Assembly: GCA_963787835.1 (NCBI GenBank)
Contig: CAWBEI010000006.1
Coordinates: 96,001 to 160,000, forward strand
DNA from: Ignavibacteriota bacterium
GTDB lineage: Bacteria > Bacteroidota > Ignavibacteria > Palsa-1295
Direction of reading: 5' to 3'
DNA length: 64,000 bases
Numbering within the stretch: the first letter of the stretch is position 1; each line of letters begins with the position of its first letter. Under the pieces are notes generated by a model. That model did not search any database and had not been told where the DNA came from. It saw only the letters and a list, made by a program, of their open reading frames with translations. This document shows, in pieces, positions 35,966 through 44,276 of this stretch. The translations under genes and the position numbers were made by a program.

Positions 35966-36334
35966 TTATGATTCTTTTTCCTGAGACGGTGGCCGCGACT
36001 CCCCTATTTTCTTGAAGATCTCTTCGATATGGGCTACTTCCTCCTGGGTCTGATCTAAATAAAAGAAAAGCTCCGGAGCATAACGCAAACGGATGGCTTT
36101 GGCGACGGCGGCGCGAAGGTGAGGCGCTTCGCTCTTGATCTTCTCGAGTACGCTTGCGCCCGGAGCACTCCCGCCGAGCAGACTCACATAGACCCGCGCA
36201 CTGCGCAGATCCGGAGACATGCGGACTTTGGTGACCGTAATAAGGCCATCCGTAAGGCTGGAAAAATCGGTTTGAAGGGCATGGGCAAGCGCCTGCTGCA
36301 CTTCCCCGCCCACGCGCTCGGTTCGTATTGACAT
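35966..36334 (-). CDS. rbfA: Ribosome-binding factor A
   Basis: R.ERV, ITVTKVRMSPDLRSARVYVS, LRYAPELFF. Confidence 0.93.
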   Translation of the reverse strand: MSIRTERVGGEVQQALAHALQTDFSSLTDGLITVTKVRMSPDLRSARVYVSLLGGSAPGASVLEKIKSEAPHLRAAVAKAIRLRYAPELFFYLDQTQEEVAHIEEIFKKIGESRPPSQEKES

Positions 36335-36402
36335 AATGAAGAAAACAGGAGGATCGGGAGGGCGTTCCTTAGGAATTGCAGAACAGCATATTACCGGAAT
36401 AA

Positions 36403-36410
36403 TATCTTTG
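36403..36410 (+). promoter_or_regulatory. Bacteroidota-type -7 promoter box (TATCTTTG) for the prodomain/protease pair
   Basis: TAnnTTTG match about 80 nt upstream of the ATG at 36491, with TTGCA further upstream. Confidence 0.5.
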
Positions 36411-36490
36411 CATATTCATGAAACGAAATGAATGTTCGGGTGTTTTTAAGTCGAGTATTGGTTCGTTTTTAGGATTTGAGGGCAAATGTT

Positions 36491-37258
36491 ATGAAAAAAG
36501 CTTTATTCGCGGTTCTGATGCTTCTCGCTATGACGAGCTGCCTACACGCACAAGCAGTTGACCCAACCTGCCTTGTTCTTTGGCAAAAGGTGTATTACCC
36601 AAACGTGCCCGACAGCCTCATTGATAATTACGATAGTGCGATGGTGGATACATGCAATGATTCGATAGCCATTCACGAGGGTTTACCAGAGATTTATCTT
36701 CAACATTATTGGGAGTTCGTTTTTCAGTACGATATTTTACCACTTGATTCCGTCAATGCAGACAGCACCTTGATTGTCGGTTGGGATGCTATAGATACAA
36801 ACTATCGTGCTACAAGGGATTCTTTCCAAAGAATGGCAGCCAAATATGGTTCGGTTCGACTTCGAAAAGCATTCCCCAATGTCATCGATAGCACGATCCA
36901 ATCATCGAACGCTTTTGCCTTGATATTAGGCTCGTATTACCCAGCGGATTCCGTTCTAAACGATCTATTAAACGTTCCATTAGTTTCCTATGCATGGTAC
37001 GATCACCCTGCACCAGTGGAGATGGTCAACCAAACACAGACTCTCGACGCAATCAAAATTATTTACATTGATCCTTTACATATTCGACTCTCGGGTATCG
37101 AAGAGAGTTGTCCCTATGTTATTTTCGATATTATTGGACGAGAAATAAGTGAAGGTAAAATTGAAGGGTTAGGTATCATAGACTTGACCATTCTTAAGGC
37201 AGGATGTTATTTTGTTTTCCTTAACAATCATATATTACATTTTTTCCGTGAGCCATAA
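36491..37258 (+). CDS. Secreted stand-alone paralog of the adjacent protease prodomain, with a degenerate T9SS C-terminal domain
   Basis: Signal peptide; 35/75 identities (hand count) to the N-terminus of 37289..42085; C-terminal IFDIIGR...IDL..LKAGCYFV. Confidence 0.75.
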   Translation: MKKALFAVLMLLAMTSCLHAQAVDPTCLVLWQKVYYPNVPDSLIDNYDSAMVDTCNDSIAIHEGLPEIYLQHYWEFVFQYDILPLDSVNADSTLIVGWDAIDTNYRATRDSFQRMAAKYGSVRLRKAFPNVIDSTIQSSNAFALILGSYYPADSVLNDLLNVPLVSYAWYDHPAPVEMVNQTQTLDAIKIIYIDPLHIRLSGIEESCPYVIFDIIGREISEGKIEGLGIIDLTILKAGCYFVFLNNHILHFFREP

Positions 37259-37288
37259 CCTACCAAATTCTTATTTTAGAACAATCTT

Positions 37289-40200
37289 ATGAAACGTGTG
37301 TCACTGTTTTTCTTACTAATCCTTGGTTTTGCAAGTGGTTTATATGCACAACCATCAACATACCCCCTATACCAGAACATCTTCGGCGCGACCTATCTTA
37401 ATGCTGACTCAGTCAGAGTCGATACGACCACTGGCTCACCTACATTCCATCATCTTTTTGCGAAACGCTATTTTGCAATCTCATTTACTTATGATATCAT
37501 GCCTCTCGACTCAGTATCCTCCGACAGCGTCTTGATTGTTGGTATCAGCGCTATTAACGGTTCATACTCCGTGATCCGAACTCAATTCGATTCACTGCAA
37601 GTAAAGCTCGGAACTATCTCATTTCAGAAGGCATATCCAGCAATCGCCGATAGTACTATTGCTTGTTCAAATGCGTTTGGACTTTTCTTTGCGAATTATG
37701 TCGATGTTGACACTGCTACTTTTTATCTTCAGCAAATTCCACTTACCCATGTTCGATTCGCAAGCATGCCATACGTCAACTGTGTGATCCCAACGGATGC
37801 CGGAATGATACCTGGAACACCTGCTTCTGCACTTCCTCCTGATGGCTCTAACCCACCTTCTGGTTATGCGACAAACTTTCATCCACTTGGGTGGGAATGG
37901 AGTCTCTACAAAATGAAATGCCCAATGGCGTGGGAAATTACGATGGGAAGGCCGGATGTATACATACTTGATGCAGATGATTGGGACTATACAACCCCGA
38001 GCGTCAATGCTGACTTAGTACCTAACTTTAAAACAATCAGCGCAAACACAGATTTGGGTTGGCCTTCTTTACCACTTTACGAAGGACATGGTCATAAGTG
38101 CATTGGTCAGGCTATTGCTGCGGCAGGCAATGGCTATTCTATGGTAGGCGTTGCCCCGAAGTGCAAGGCGCTGGGCATAGGGCACGGCTTCGGTGATCCA
38201 GATTATGAACATATCGACTGCGATGGTCTTAAGAACGGTATTAAAACATACGCAGATGTTATTTATGCTGCTAGCGGTAACCCTGGTGACTTTCTAAATA
38301 TGTTTAATCTCGGCACTGTAGCAACGTTCGCTGCTGGAAATGGGCTTGGACGATTTAATGACGGTTCGGGTGGATCATACCAGGAATACCCGACCGAGTT
38401 TGGACCTTTTGGATGGGGTATTTTCTACATCGACAATAACCCGGCTCACGATATTCCGTTCATTGGTGTTACAATTACTATGGATGGCTTCGATACGTAT
38501 TGCCCGAATGCGTGGTCTTGGTCCAAAGAGGGTGCGGAAACGATTGCAGATTACTACAGTTGGTCTTCAGGGTTGGAGAAATTTGATCAAACCTCTGATC
38601 CAACAATACGTGGACCTTTGAAAGGTCACGCATTCGTTGATCTTGTGGCCCCGGGCCTTGAGGTGCTTTGTGCGTATGGCTCGCCGACTTCCTCTACTTA
38701 CGCAGTCGAAAGCGGCACATCTTTTGCAGCGCCCGAAGTAGCAGGTGTGGCCGCATTGATGAAATCTATCGGCATCAATGGCAATACGCAAGCAAATCAC
38801 TATCTTGGAGTCAACCTTGCAGGGGGAATACCGACGAATGGGGCAGACGTTGAGATGATGGCTCATTTGATTTTAACGTTTACTGCCTATAAGATTGCGG
38901 ACATCTCACGGGACGCAATTGATCCTGGAACTGGAATAGCAATCGCACAGGGGTTCCCTGCAAGTTCAAGCGATGTAGTTTACACTTCGGGTGATCTCGA
39001 TTCTCGTTATGCTAGTGGAACAACACTTACTCCCTGGCAGTATGATTACAATAACAATTCCACGTTTCTGAGTAAAGACGTAGTTGAGCTACCGGGAGAT
39101 GGAATATCTCGAACTCTCAATCGTTCTTGGGCGCAGCGAGTTGGCTTTGGACGGGTAAATGCTTATCGCGCTGTTGCAAACTCGATACCTGTAATCGGAA
39201 ATTACGAATATTCTTCATCCACTCTTCACTTAGGTTTTACTACTGCTGCCGAGAATGAGAACAGCGCGTTCCTAATGCACTTCGGCGCATGGAAAGATGC
39301 AACCCATAAAACTCTTGTAGCTGGCGGAAATATCATTCCTAATCAGAATCTCGTTCCACCTTACGTCGCGTGGCCCCATTTAAATCAAGGGCAGACAGTG
39401 ATTAATAGTGCTAGTGGGACTCCGACAGTTCTCACAGTCGGGGATGACCCTTCCCCGGGCAACTTCGATATTCTCGCAATTGATGGGAACCTGATCGGAG
39501 ACGGTCTTGCAAATAACAAAATCACGACGACGAGCAATGGAAAAATCCTCATAACTGGTTATCTACAAGATGTCGAAGTTACCGGTGCGACGACGAAAGT
39601 CGATGACCTCATAATTTATTCAAGTGGCAGTAATGGCTATAGTAATGTGACTGTTGGAAGTGGCCAGACATCAGAGATCTACGGTGTCGTTCAACTACAA
39701 GATAATGGTAACTTTATTGTCAACGGTGGCACCCTTACCATTCAGCCTGGGGGTGAGATCGAAATGGAGGGAAATAACGGTTTCGACATTCTGAGTGGTA
39801 GCCATGTCATCATGGAGGCAAGCTCAACCATCGCGAATGAATGGGTAAAAGTAGAGAGCGGAGCAACTCTGGAAATAAAGGGTTTACTCCCAGCAAGTAT
39901 TTTCTCGGATTTACTCGTTGAATCTGGTGGACAAGTGATAATTGATGCTGGCGCAACACTGCAACTTGACGAATTTACGGTATATTCAGGTGGGTCGATT
40001 ACTGTCCTGGGTGGTACGGGCACTGGTGGTACTCCAGCACTTCCAGGGGGAAGACTGACATTAAATAAGAGCACAACAAACACATGCCTGGGCACTTTGT
40101 CATTTGAAGGGGTAACAGGCGTGGGCAATCGTTGTACCTTAACAGGTGGCATCTCGGCCTGCGGCCAAGTTGATCAAAATGCTATTATACTTGTAAGGGG

Positions 40201-42085
40201 TTCAACAACCCTTCCTACTCCTTCAACGGATGCAACGATCAACATGGTTTATACCGATGATAGCGATGTGGAGATTAAGGTTCAGGATGCCTTAAAATAT
40301 CCTTTCATTCACGACTGCTTCTCAGCTAACTCATCGTTCAAAGGTACCTCACCGAATTTACCAATCTCGACGATGCTTTACGTGGCAAATTCAGAAGTCT
40401 ATCCTCGCTTATCGGGGGCAAACCCCGAGCTCACCAATATTCAGGTTACGAATTGCCGTTTTTTCGATGAATTAACAGGCACTTATATCATTCCAGCATA
40501 TCACACCATCGATTGTTTTTATGCCTCTAATCTTTATGGGGCCAGCGCTGCTCCCATGCTCATCGCGTACGATACTTTCTATAATGCGCGAATCGGATGC
40601 CAATCCTATCATTGCTCAAATTTGAGGTACAGTTATGATTTAGTCGGGTTGTCTCCTGGTAGCGCCGCCTCCCCGATGCAGCATGGCATTACCGATTATT
40701 CCTCATACGGTGACATCTGCAATTCCTCCATAGAATATTGCGTGGATGGAGGTATCGGTGAATTCAATCATGCCTTTGTTTTCCTCTATGACAATCTACT
40801 CTATGGAAATAGTTATTGGGAACTTACAGCTCAAAATGGCAACAATTGTTGGGTGCGAGGGAATTCATTCTCCACATTTCAGCAATGGGGTGGATGGTCA
40901 TTAGGTGCAGGAAGTTGGATTTACCTATCCGACTTGGTAACAACCGAATATGGAAAAAGTCAATTCCAAACTATAGATGCTGGCAACAGCGCGGATCTTG
41001 TTAGGGGGGGAAATAAAGCCTCTTCCCTTCACGGGGGCGGTTTGTCCATTCAATGTGGGCGTAATTCCTTTGGCTCGACCGAGAGTTGGCACCTCGTTAA
41101 TAACGATCCAGGGTTAGGTACTTACACTATGCCTGTTCAATACAATAATTTTCAGTCTGGCGGCACCGTGCGTCAAATTCGAGTAACGGCGACTGGCACT
41201 CCATTGAATGTCTCTACAACTGACCCTCAGACTAATTGTACAGATGTAATCGATTTAAGTCCGGAATGTACAATTCCGATTGGTAATCCCTACCCTCCAA
41301 CTTCCGAATGGTTTCCAACGGATTCCTCAAGTTCAACCCTAAAAACCGCATTCTGGAACGCGAGAGGAATGCTACTTTCCGATACCAATACCGACGATAT
41401 ACGTATGGCAAGTGCGTCAGACGAAATAGGGCTTGCTGGGTTAATCGATTCATCAGCTACGTATTTGAATCAAGCCCTTGCGGACTTCAACTACGTTCTC
41501 GGGTTGGGGACAACCTTACCTGACCTTAAGAGCAGTTTGTGGATGATGAAAGGCCAAATCTATGAGGAGCAAGGGCTAACAACCTCGGCAATACATTGCT
41601 ATGATACGATCACCTCAAATTATCATCAATACACTGATTCTATTTATGCTGTTTGGTCATTACAGCATCTCGCGCTTCCAAATGATTCAACAAGCAGCTT
41701 CGATTCCTTGCAAAACATCTATGTAACTCGTGTTATCAACGATCTCATCTCGATACAGGATACAATCTCTGGCGGTGGCGGCGAAAAGATGGCGGATGGG
41801 CATCCTATGGCAGATACTACAACGCTACAAGTCACTGTCCATCCGAATCCGGCTTCGGGCATTGTAAAAGTCTGCGTGGCAGATTTACCCGGCGGCATTC
41901 CTGTTGTGGTGAATGTCGTGAACCAAATGGGTGCTTCGGTTGCAACGCTTTATAATGCAACTCCGGAGGCCGAGCTTGGCCTATGCCTATCGCTCGATTG
42001 CTCCATGCTTCCCAGCGGTATCTACTATGCGGATCTCCAAACGGAAGGCACGCACAATGCTGTGAAGTTTACAGTATCACATTAA
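37289..42085 (+). CDS. Large T9SS-secreted S8 (subtilisin-like) serine protease with beta-helix and TPR-like domains
   Basis: AWEITMG..DVYILD (Asp), GHGH (His), GVAP, FAAGN (oxyanion), DLVAPG, SGTSFAAPEVAGVAAL (Ser), GFGRVNA; CTD VHPNP...LPSGIYY. Confidence 0.88.
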   Translation: MKRVSLFFLLILGFASGLYAQPSTYPLYQNIFGATYLNADSVRVDTTTGSPTFHHLFAKRYFAISFTYDIMPLDSVSSDSVLIVGISAINGSYSVIRTQFDSLQVKLGTISFQKAYPAIADSTIACSNAFGLFFANYVDVDTATFYLQQIPLTHVRFASMPYVNCVIPTDAGMIPGTPASALPPDGSNPPSGYATNFHPLGWEWSLYKMKCPMAWEITMGRPDVYILDADDWDYTTPSVNADLVPNFKTISANTDLGWPSLPLYEGHGHKCIGQAIAAAGNGYSMVGVAPKCKALGIGHGFGDPDYEHIDCDGLKNGIKTYADVIYAASGNPGDFLNMFNLGTVATFAAGNGLGRFNDGSGGSYQEYPTEFGPFGWGIFYIDNNPAHDIPFIGVTITMDGFDTYCPNAWSWSKEGAETIADYYSWSSGLEKFDQTSDPTIRGPLKGHAFVDLVAPGLEVLCAYGSPTSSTYAVESGTSFAAPEVAGVAALMKSIGINGNTQANHYLGVNLAGGIPTNGADVEMMAHLILTFTAYKIADISRDAIDPGTGIAIAQGFPASSSDVVYTSGDLDSRYASGTTLTPWQYDYNNNSTFLSKDVVELPGDGISRTLNRSWAQRVGFGRVNAYRAVANSIPVIGNYEYSSSTLHLGFTTAAENENSAFLMHFGAWKDATHKTLVAGGNIIPNQNLVPPYVAWPHLNQGQTVINSASGTPTVLTVGDDPSPGNFDILAIDGNLIGDGLANNKITTTSNGKILITGYLQDVEVTGATTKVDDLIIYSSGSNGYSNVTVGSGQTSEIYGVVQLQDNGNFIVNGGTLTIQPGGEIEMEGNNGFDILSGSHVIMEASSTIANEWVKVESGATLEIKGLLPASIFSDLLVESGGQVIIDAGATLQLDEFTVYSGGSITVLGGTGTGGTPALPGGRLTLNKSTTNTCLGTLSFEGVTGVGNRCTLTGGISACGQVDQNAIILVRGSTTLPTPSTDATINMVYTDDSDVEIKVQDALKYPFIHDCFSANSSFKGTSPNLPISTMLYVANSEVYPRLSGANPELTNIQVTNCRFFDELTGTYIIPAYHTIDCFYASNLYGASAAPMLIAYDTFYNARIGCQSYHCSNLRYSYDLVGLSPGSAASPMQHGITDYSSYGDICNSSIEYCVDGGIGEFNHAFVFLYDNLLYGNSYWELTAQNGNNCWVRGNSFSTFQQWGGWSLGAGSWIYLSDLVTTEYGKSQFQTIDAGNSADLVRGGNKASSLHGGGLSIQCGRNSFGSTESWHLVNNDPGLGTYTMPVQYNNFQSGGTVRQIRVTATGTPLNVSTTDPQTNCTDVIDLSPECTIPIGNPYPPTSEWFPTDSSSSTLKTAFWNARGMLLSDTNTDDIRMASASDEIGLAGLIDSSATYLNQALADFNYVLGLGTTLPDLKSSLWMMKGQIYEEQGLTTSAIHCYDTITSNYHQYTDSIYAVWSLQHLALPNDSTSSFDSLQNIYVTRVINDLISIQDTISGGGGEKMADGHPMADTTTLQVTVHPNPASGIVKVCVADLPGGIPVVVNVVNQMGASVATLYNATPEAELGLCLSLDCSMLPSGIYYADLQTEGTHNAVKFTVSH

Positions 42086-42104
42086 GCGCTTCTAAAATCA
42101 ACTC

Positions 42105-42144
42105 TAACCCGCGCAAGCCGAATTTCTTGCGCGGGTTATTTTTT
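42105..42144 (+). terminator. Rho-independent terminator after the protease gene
   Basis: TAACCCGCGCAAG / CTTGCGCGGGTTA stem plus T-run. Confidence 0.85.
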
Positions 42145-42186
42145 GTCGTATATTGGTGGTGAGTTGATGGGCACCTATATGAATTT

Positions 42187-42214
42187 TCAATTAAGAATTG
42201 AGAATTAAGAATGG
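42187..42214. repeat. Heptamer tandem repeat (AATTRAG)n
   Basis: TCAATTAAGAATTGAGAATTAAGAATGG. Confidence 0.65.
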
Positions 42215-42575
42215 GGGCTCGGTGGTTCATTGACAATCGTTGGCGGTAGGTTTCGTTATGAACGAGTCCTTTGAGAAAGCTGATTTTGCATTTCTTCCAG
42301 AACGAACGGCAAAAACAGCTTGGAAACGAGGGTGTGTCGGGAACTCGCAAGAAAAAGAAATGGCACCTATTTCTGGAAGCAAAGCTCCGGCTGTATTTCT
42401 AACAGATAATGGCAGTGTCGTGTTTGAGTGCCCGCCTTATTAGAGCAATATTGCATTTCCTAAGCAAGGTCACACATAATTGCCCAGTTTGTGGGGGTCC
42501 ATTTCGGAACTGAACGGGAAGCGAATCACCTTTATGTGCCAGTCACCGTCGTTGCCGTGACATCCTCCATTATCC

Positions 42576-44276
42576 TTGGAAATACTACACTTGCATCCCC
42601 AAAGACGAACAATTCGCATCCATTTGGCACATAAGATAACGCTGGCGTTTGCACTCGTTGCTGTTCTGATAGCTGGATTAATCGCCCTCCCCGCCTCTTC
42701 ACAGGCGCAAATGACCTCGGAGGAGCTTTATAACTCCTTTAAGAACAGCATGGGCGTCGCTGACACGGCTACGGAGAAGATCTTAGCTCGCCGCCAAACG
42801 CAAACCGAGCAGACTGCGCAAGCGCTCGAAGCACCGGTCGATCCAAATACGTACCAGCTTGGCCCTGGGGATGGGGTTTATCTTGTGGTGTATTCCATCC
42901 ATGGAATCGATCAGGATCTGATGGTTACTCCCGAAGGGCAGCTATTGATACCGAATGTTGGCGCCGTTCAGGTCTCGGGCATAACCGTAACCGAGGCGCA
43001 GAAGAGGGTGAAAGCTGCATTAGCTAAGGATTTCAAAGCGCCGGATGTCTCGCTTTCGCTTCGGAAATTGCGTCCCATCAAGGTGAATGTTATCGGCAAC
43101 GTGCTTTCACCGGGGATGCAATCGGCTACAGCGATGCAACGAGTCAGCGAGGTGATCGACCATGCCGGTGGATTTAAGACGAATTCATCGCTGAGGAATA
43201 TCGAGATCCGAACGCTTACCGGAAATATTCGGGCACATGCAGATCTTGTTCGGTACTATGCTATTGGGGATCTCAATGCAAACCCTGCGCTGGAGGCTGG
43301 CGACGTCATCGATGTGCCGACTGCCAAGAAGTACACACTCGTTGCGGGCAGCGTTGCTACACCGCAACGGATCGAATTTGTAGATGGCGACTCGCTTTCG
43401 ACGGCGTTAGCTCTATGCGGTGGGTTACTGCCAGGCTCTAATCAGGATTCTATCGAAATAGCCCGCTTCCCTGATAATGATCCAGTCCATGCGCAATGGA
43501 TATGGGTAAATTACGCTCGCGGAGAGAATCCCCTGCTTCATGAGGGAGACCAAATTTTTGTGAGAGCATACTCGCAGTTTCATGTTCCGAGAATTGTCAG
43601 CATTGGAGGCCAAGTGCCATTCCCCGGTGATTATCCGATCCAGCCGGGAACTACGCGCTTAAAGGATATTCTGGAGGGTGCCGGTGGAATCCTTCCGAAT
43701 GCATCGCTGGATCAGGCACGGCTCATTCGGCGAGCAGGCGTTAATAATTTCAGCAACGATCTCGAACTTCAACGCATTCAAACGCTCTCAGCCCTTCGAA
43801 AGGAAGGCCTTACCGATGAGCAGTATAACTATTATGCATCCCATTTCCTCATGTTTTCGATGGTCGTCGATTTCAAAGCGCTGCTTAATGGTGATCAGTC
43901 CCAAAACATATTAATGCGGGAACAGGATTCCATTTACATTCCGCGAGCCATGGGTTTTGTCACGGTATCGGGAAGCGTCATCCGGCAAGGAAATGTAGAG
44001 TTCATCCAGGGAGGCACCTGGCAAGATTATATCAACAAAGCTGGAGGGTTCGCATCGGACGCCGATCGCTCGGCGATCCGGGTGGTCAATCCCCAGACAG
44101 GCTCTTATACCGATCCCCGTTCCGAGTCTAATTATGGAATTGAATCCGGTGATATGATCATCGTGCCACGCGAAGAGCCACATTTTTGGAAAGATGTGGC
44201 TGCTGGCGCACTTATTACAGCTCAGATCATCACCATCCTCGCAGGTGTTATTTTCTTGGTTAAGAACGGTCTATAA
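42576..44276 (+). CDS. Polysaccharide export protein with SLBB domains (Wza/KpsD-like)
   Basis: YQLGPGD, PEGQLLIPNVG, repeated G.V..PG and AGG SLBB motifs; TTG start at 42576 or 42624. Confidence 0.88.
   Translation: MEILHLHPQRRTIRIHLAHKITLAFALVAVLIAGLIALPASSQAQMTSEELYNSFKNSMGVADTATEKILARRQTQTEQTAQALEAPVDPNTYQLGPGDGVYLVVYSIHGIDQDLMVTPEGQLLIPNVGAVQVSGITVTEAQKRVKAALAKDFKAPDVSLSLRKLRPIKVNVIGNVLSPGMQSATAMQRVSEVIDHAGGFKTNSSLRNIEIRTLTGNIRAHADLVRYYAIGDLNANPALEAGDVIDVPTAKKYTLVAGSVATPQRIEFVDGDSLSTALALCGGLLPGSNQDSIEIARFPDNDPVHAQWIWVNYARGENPLLHEGDQIFVRAYSQFHVPRIVSIGGQVPFPGDYPIQPGTTRLKDILEGAGGILPNASLDQARLIRRAGVNNFSNDLELQRIQTLSALRKEGLTDEQYNYYASHFLMFSMVVDFKALLNGDQSQNILMREQDSIYIPRAMGFVTVSGSVIRQGNVEFIQGGTWQDYINKAGGFASDADRSAIRVVNPQTGSYTDPRSESNYGIESGDMIIVPREEPHFWKDVAAGALITAQIITILAGVIFLVKNGL

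Follow-up and report, generated by a model that had tools for sequence, protein, structure and literature searches.

Free-standing copies of a subtilase prodomain with putative type IX secretion tails, encoded beside and apart from secreted subtilases in Ignavibacteria

The 64,000-nucleotide stretch analysed here (the window; positions 96,001 to 160,000 of the forward strand of contig CAWBEI010000006.1, assembly GCA_963787835.1, from an Ignavibacteriota bacterium) contains two adjoining genes, P0001 and P0002. P0002 encodes a large secreted subtilase of family S8, and P0001 encodes a free copy of the subtilase prodomain, which carries its own signal peptide and a tail of the type used by type IX secretion systems (T9SS) and has no catalytic domain. 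Related free genes occur in other genomes of the class, upstream of subtilase genes, in arrays, and in genomes in which no intact protease of the family was found. These prodomain-tail genes are a hitherto unannotated family and, on sequence evidence, the arrangement is real, recurrent and under selection. With moderate confidence, the free protein is interpreted as an exported propeptide-type inhibitor that is kept matched to its own protease and is retained as orphan protection. Genomes, contigs and loci are designated below by G, C and L numbers, the window's genome being G000.

The gene pair and its shared domain

The features of the two genes are as follows (CTD, C-terminal domain; pLDDT, predicted local distance difference test; TPR, tetratricopeptide repeat).

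36491..37258, plus strand: P0001, free prodomain gene encoding 255 aa, counted from the ATG; signal peptide, prodomain and T9SS-type tail
36491..36550, plus strand: likely Sec signal peptide of P0001, cleaved before Gln21, as read by eye (not by a predictor) from the A-x-A|Q pattern in homologs
36560..37024, plus strand: subtilase-type prodomain of P0001, residues 24-178; predicted alpha/beta ferredoxin-like fold, pLDDT 88
37025..37255, plus strand: linker and T9SS-CTD-like tail of P0001, starting at the position equivalent to the protease mature start
37289..42085, plus strand: P0002, subtilase gene, 1598 aa; signal peptide, prodomain, S8 domain, long uncharacterised middle, TPR-like segment and CTD
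37349..37783, plus strand: prodomain of P0002 itself (residues 21-165), with 37% identity to that of P0001
37784..39193, plus strand: S8 catalytic domain of P0002, residues 166-635, with Asp230, His267 and Ser478
41837..42082, plus strand: T9SS CTD of P0002 (PF18962, E 1e-4)

The coordinates of both open reading frames and the 30-bp gap between them are as given in the initial annotation of this DNA, which was made from sequence alone. That annotation had pointed to an ungapped block of 75 residues common to the two proteins, and a recount agrees with its figure of 35/75 identities. The match is in fact longer than the block. BLASTP aligns residues 1-165 of P0001 with residues 1-153 of P0002, with 59/165 identical (36%) and E 2e-27, the signal peptide included. 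The end of the homology coincides, as had been claimed, with the mature start VIPTD at P0002 residue 166, from which solved mature subtilases superpose on the model described below. The catalytic domain that follows matches PF00082 with E 5e-16, and its catalytic triad is invariant in 14/14 aligned family members. The best PDB sequence match of the protease family is mirolase (E 2e-18), and the Pfam and NCBIfam matches of P0002 include no toxin families.

The T9SS-CTD-like tail claimed for P0001 stays under the Pfam cut-off in P0001 itself (13.2 bits against a cut-off of 27 bits) and is clear in its homologs: among 43 homologous free proteins that were scanned, 36 match PF18962 at E<=0.1 and 19 score above the cut-off. 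A lipobox-like MTSC sequence in P0001 is not common to the homologs, the N-termini of which have no conserved lipobox cysteine; two other cysteines, within the free prodomain, are nearly invariant. A search of the host for SprA, PorU-like and PorV components of the T9SS located SprA and three C25 (PorU-like) genes, one adjoining PorV. We infer that P0001 and P0002 are both exported by this system.

Profile and structure comparisons together indicate that the shared domain is a homolog of subtilase prodomains, as originally proposed. A 41-sequence family profile matches the prodomains of ordinary S8 enzymes with an hhalign probability of 98.4 and E 6e-15, and every S8-attached copy of the domain ends at an IPND-type mature start. 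In the AlphaFold model of the free domain (pLDDT 88) the elements run strand-helix-strand-strand-helix-strand, interrupted by insertions, which is the ferredoxin-like order. On a model of the precursor (pLDDT 68, predicted template modelling score 0.66, 17 sequences, low-confidence linker), solved mature subtilases superpose from model residue 145-149, corresponding to protease residue 165-169, so that the shared domain fills the propeptide slot. Pro-Tk-subtilisin and fervidolysin superpose on the same model over the catalytic domain only; the model does not place the prodomain in its canonical docked position, which says little either way because the linker is of low confidence. A predicted complex of the free domain with the S8 domain scored 0.00 in two runs in which the controls were not folded, and carries no weight either way. 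Foldseek with the free domain returned nothing at E<=0.001, the domain profiles met only chance matches among PDB sequences, and the ESM Atlas gave no usable match. The domain, at ~150 aa, is larger than classic propeptides and has an N-terminal extension. It is not I9 by profile, nor is it a potempin by fold.

Recurrence, gene conversion and selection

The domain was searched for in 401 genomes of the class and in a second, phylum-wide sample of 401 genomes. Profile matches were obtained in 40/401 class genomes, four of them weak (E >1e-8) and, where inspected, ordinary S8 prodomains; the phylum-wide sample added two matches outside the class, both weak and both ordinary S8 prodomains. Word-based protein searches gave few matches (2, 8 and 1). 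After removal of duplicates, 55 free prodomain-tail genes were collected, 54 with a tail of 67-99 aa and one with a tail of 246 aa that includes an extra domain. One free gene has two prodomains: at L035:10733-11989 (G011), within a three-gene array, two tandem prodomains precede a single tail. Every locus fetched has the domain either ahead of an S8 domain or as part of a free signal-prodomain-tail gene; it is thus not a generic T9SS module in this sample, and a generic module would have spoken against the initial annotation.

Forty-eight loci with an S8 start were available for counting linkage. Omission of one ordinary S8 gene and of seven loci with too little upstream DNA left 40 family protease loci. 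At 17 of these, between one and three free copies are found upstream on the same strand, in one case with an intervening gene. The pairing of a prodomain-tail gene with a tailed S8 gene, for which the initial annotation had suggested a search, therefore recurs across the class. It persists even when the prodomain has drifted out of reach of the profile: in G245 the free gene barely matches the profile, yet its identity to the neighbour is 52%. The free genes occupy different neighbourhoods in different genomes and are lower in G+C content than their flanks at 23/25 loci; the respective values for P0001 are 0.41 and ~0.50.

Three further observations concern the family protease loci. At L168:8399-9211 a prodomain-tail gene with a weak match (19 bits) is situated downstream of a frameshifted family protease rather than upstream of it. 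At L109:5736-7415 (G098) the prodomain region of the protease is broken by an apparent insertion-sequence gene. A beta-propeller gene of the BNR, WD40 or RCC1 type often directly follows the family protease (L091, L098, L101, L108, L129 and L144), and some of these beta-propeller proteins have a T9SS tail; none is present in the window.

Among 13 adjacent pairs, the neighbour's own prodomain is the best match of the free copy out of 34 S8-attached prodomains in ten, with a tie in one more. In four genomes (loci L041, L053, L134 and L171) a tract of 80-120 codons, confined to the prodomain, is 92-100% identical at the DNA level between the free copy and the protease, and the flanking signal and tail regions of the two genes are unrelated. 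The free tail is nearer to other free tails than to the tail of the neighbour in 9/9 pairs. Near-identical DNA restricted to the prodomain, between different signal peptides and tails, points to gene conversion. The simplest reading of these sequences is an old free-gene chassis, the prodomain of which is periodically homogenised with that of the neighbour by gene conversion in one direction or the other; single cases may be assembly artefacts. On a quick tree, from which seven partial domains were dropped, free and attached domains interleave with 14 changes, at least six of which are forced by well-supported branches. The initial annotation had derived the small gene from a prodomain duplication. 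The window pair is not a fresh duplication: it is 37% identical, its synonymous sites are saturated and it groups with equivalent pairs in G001 and G006, so that it is an old, unconverted pair, co-inherited with two relatives, and elsewhere the prodomain has apparently been re-matched by gene conversion.

Free genes also persist without a family protease. Family proteases were found in 20/401 genomes when three candidates were scored per genome, and full rescoring of all candidates yielded no intact family protease in G001, G002, G011, G020 and G351. These five genomes keep one to four free genes each, and two of them are single-contig genomes; fragmented assemblies may conceal some proteases. 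Arrays of free genes are present at L131, L134 and L151 and in G011, G020, G023 and G351. The window's genome itself has a second free prodomain-tail gene, on the minus strand of another contig (G000:C2:400326-401081; L001:10327-11082), with no protease nearby; at the syntenic locus in G002 a truncated protease still lies behind the free gene. The description of the small protein as the dedicated partner of its neighbour thus holds only in part, given this orphan copy and the protease-less relatives.

The ratio of nonsynonymous to synonymous substitution rates (dN/dS) is 0.10-0.34 over all computable free-vs-free pairs. It is 0.10-0.27 for pairs from protease-less genomes, 0.18 and 0.26 for attached prodomains, and 0.20 and 0.42 for the tails of free genes. 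As the values in protease-less genomes are no higher than those of attached prodomains, the free genes are functional even where the family protease is absent. These values bear on the possibility that the free genes are decay products, that is, functionless remnants of duplicated protease genes from which the middle has been deleted. Such remnants do exist: L095 consists of a prodomain, a few S8 residues and a tail, L034 and L045 are hybrids, and broken family proteases are common. However, purifying selection is seen in all computable pairs, 54/55 genes have a uniform length and a clean junction, and the free tails did not come from the tail of the neighbouring protease in any of the nine pairs. 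The selection and tail-ancestry results largely refute decay as an explanation, and it is considered very improbable. A higher breakage rate of protease genes relative to free genes was set aside as evidence because protease genes are about six times longer.

Proposed function and alternatives

As a propeptide-type inhibitor, the free protein would be exported by means of its T9SS-type tail, and once the tail was removed the domain would terminate at the same point as a cleaved propeptide. The tail linker of well-aligned pairs starts at the protease mature start or no more than a few residues from it. With an end equivalent to that of a cleaved propeptide, the last residues could sit in the active-site cleft; the positional equivalence of the C-terminal junction is the part that is observed, and placement in the cleft is inferred from it. 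Once the protease had destroyed its own propeptide, the free domain would cap the mature enzyme again, and such propeptide-style binding of a mature subtilase would protect the cell surface. Gene conversion would keep the nearest copy matched to its own protease; extra, divergent or orphan copies would shield the surface from related proteases of other cells or from other subtilases of the same cell.

Several results weigh against this interpretation. The link to recognised prodomains is counted as transitive, because none of the 41 family members directly matches PF05922 (I9) or PF22148 (fervidolysin prodomain) at E<=1; the profile check proposed in the initial annotation succeeds only by way of ordinary S8 prodomains, one of seven of which passes the PF22148 cut-off. 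The best structural match of the free domain, the PC1/3 prodomain (Z 4.5, root mean square deviation 3.0, 68 residues aligned), is weak and is tied with other, unrelated ferredoxin-like folds. In two of the 13 adjacent pairs the neighbour ranks third and eighth, and the copies in the window are only 37% identical. Even at 88-95% identity, the free and the attached copy of a pair disagree in the last four to five prodomain residues, the ones expected in the cleft. No free copy lies upstream at 23/40 protease loci, so the protease can do without one; a BLAST search for hidden divergent copies returned none at 18 loci and recovered the positive control, L108. In T9SS export the CTD is cleaved and a sortase attaches lipopolysaccharide to the new C-terminus (PMC4804311), and this modification, if made here, might hinder product-like binding. 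Other host S8 enzymes are possible targets of the orphan copies: orphan-bearing genomes have 6-9 other S8 genes, and the window's genome has nine.

The initial annotation had left a choice between an inhibitor and a trans-acting chaperone. As an external chaperone, the free prodomain would fold the protease in trans in the periplasm, in the manner of Aeromonas ORF2, and any inhibition would be transient. The ORF2 precedent itself (PMC5638518) favours this role, gene conversion would keep a chaperone matched as well, and one locus fits it closely. In G172 (L089:2-4661) the free gene ends 4 bp before a prodomain-less S8 gene, which runs off the contig; the signal peptide of this protease leads straight into the mature start and the triad motifs are intact. 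The locus looks like a subtilase zymogen split into two genes. However, most adjacent proteases, that of the window included, retain their own prodomain, the conserved export tail would be unnecessary for folding in the periplasm, and free genes are under selection where the family protease is absent. Furthermore, the fetched flanks of the prodomain-less proteases at L129, L130 and L132 (all in G703) and at L166 contain no free gene, and a genome-wide search of G703 gave no profile match at E<=0.01. The three G703 proteases are under purifying selection. Prodomain-less proteases under selection without a free copy suggest that the enzyme family can do without the domain, which favours an inhibitor over an obligate chaperone. 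The domain is therefore probably not an obligate chaperone, although an undetected helper in G703 is possible. Trans-chaperoning is the weaker of the two roles originally suggested, and an external chaperone is rather unlikely as the main function. The S8 domains of the three G703 copies are identical as proteins and their C-terminal parts are 92-93% identical, which suggests gene conversion among these copies too.

A further alternative is that the fold has been co-opted for a surface protein in adhesion or in substrate or receptor binding, so that its linkage to proteases reflects ancestry only. This would agree with the excess of free genes over proteases, with the divergent protease-less arrays in G011, G020, G032 and G351, with the large size of the domain, its N-terminal extension and its two conserved cysteines, and with the variability of the predicted cleft-binding tail. 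Against it, the domain is found on no other enzyme in the loci examined, it has repeatedly been homogenised with the prodomain of the neighbouring protease, and the quick tree intermingles the free forms with the attached ones. Co-option is considered unlikely.

The inhibitor interpretation can be extended, tentatively, to an extracellular conflict between protease and antiprotease. The T9SS subtilase would attack neighbouring cells or their surface proteins, and its own propeptide, split off, exported and refreshed by gene conversion, would provide immunity. Arrays in cells without the enzyme would then hold foreign specificities, and the split zymogen of G172 would represent an end point. 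This extension is possible but doubtful.

Known systems and the surroundings of the pair

Stand-alone propeptide-like proteins that inhibit subtilases include POIA1, yeast IB2, Arabidopsis SPI-1, TgMIC5 and Plasmodium SUB1-ProM (PMC6993865). As in the present case, they are encoded by separate small genes; they have a subtilase-propeptide-type fold, as may also be so here; the SUB1-ProM gene also adjoins subtilase genes, and SUB1-ProM inhibits its cognate enzyme (PMC6993865). The examples named in that source are all eukaryotic and have no significant sequence similarity to propeptides (PMC6993865). In contrast, the free genes described here are bacterial, encode true homologs (up to 95% identical) with a T9SS-type tail, and show arrays and conversion tracts.

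Spi of Streptococcus pyogenes is not known to have an export signal. Its gene resembles P0001 in being bacterial, in adjoining that of the protease SpeB and in encoding a propeptide analogue and inhibitor (PMC2873492). SpeB, however, is a cysteine protease of family C10 rather than S8, and no Spi arrays or orphans were met in the portions of that source used here (PMC2873492). In Aeromonas sobria, the product of the adjacent gene ORF2 serves through its C-terminus as chaperone and temporary inhibitor of ASP, a propeptide-deficient subtilase (PMC5638518), and the G172 locus follows the same logic. ORF2 lies downstream and is required for maturation (PMC5638518), whereas most proteases here keep a prodomain, and the tail of the free protein is of an outer-membrane export type. 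In Tannerella forsythia the genes for potempins lie directly upstream of those for secreted T9SS-cargo proteases, the S8 enzyme mirolase among them, a position like that of the free genes; potempins act at the surface (PMC9890683). These lipoproteins of 98-132 aa have an OB-fold or an up-and-down beta-barrel (PMC9890683) and show no relation to propeptides, unlike the alpha/beta domain predicted here; the word 'propeptide' is absent from the main text of that paper. The orphan immunity arrays of polymorphic toxin systems, as far as the sources used describe them, likewise contain small, protective-looking genes that are kept where the large partner is broken or absent. Unlike in those systems, no toxin domain is present, there is no sign that the protease harms other cells, and the part of the immunity protein would be taken by the propeptide of the enzyme itself. 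T9SS-tailed S8 enzymes are mentioned in a survey of bacterial S8 architectures, the portions of which used here contain no free prodomain genes (PMC9424270). No bacterial T9SS-exported stand-alone subtilase-propeptide gene was found in the open-access literature, supplements and subscription papers being outside this scope.

Stand-alone subtilase propeptides have so far been a matter of a handful of eukaryotes, in which they are thought to be mimics. The present bacterial class displays the whole series, from the attached propeptide through a free exported copy matched by gene conversion to arrays, orphans, a split enzyme and propeptide-free enzymes. With natural pairs ranging from 25% to 95% identity, both the separability of the chaperone and inhibitor roles and the specificity residues can be tested. 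If the orphans block foreign enzymes, they would amount to an interbacterial defence based on proteases and could supply selective inhibitors of subtilases. Secreted subtilases that lack a propeptide by nature are of practical interest as well.

The window pair is flanked by rbfA, truB and ribF on one side and by a polysaccharide export cluster on the other. Two short elements bracket it.

36403..36410, plus strand: TAnnTTTG box, 80 bp upstream of the P0001 start
42105..42138, plus strand: terminator-like hairpin of 13 pairs, followed by a T run

The hairpin is present as the initial annotation had described it. The TAnnTTTG box, proposed as a promoter, is also in place, but it carries no evidential weight because the motif is no commoner in the window than expected by chance (28 observed, 32.9 expected). 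An Rfam scan of 36000-43000 gave no matches. Contigs from public soil runs include pieces that match both copies with no differences; none of the pieces listed spans both genes.

Directly 3' of the terminator, at 42141-42385, lies a dispersed intergenic repeat that folds into long hairpins and has no Rfam match. It has 59 blastn matches in the genome, 52 of them >=120 bp long, at ~70-87% identity and on all seven contigs, and is possibly an element resembling a miniature inverted-repeat transposable element or a repeated RNA. The preceding segment, 41830-42150, which comprises the P0002 CTD, the terminator and downstream DNA, is 92% identical to the 3' end of the gene for an unrelated secreted protein of 780 aa on contig C5 (G000:C5:59044-58725; L002). 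The CTDs of P0002 and of this unrelated cargo are ~90% identical. The shared 3' ends suggest that export-tail cassettes are exchanged between cargo genes.

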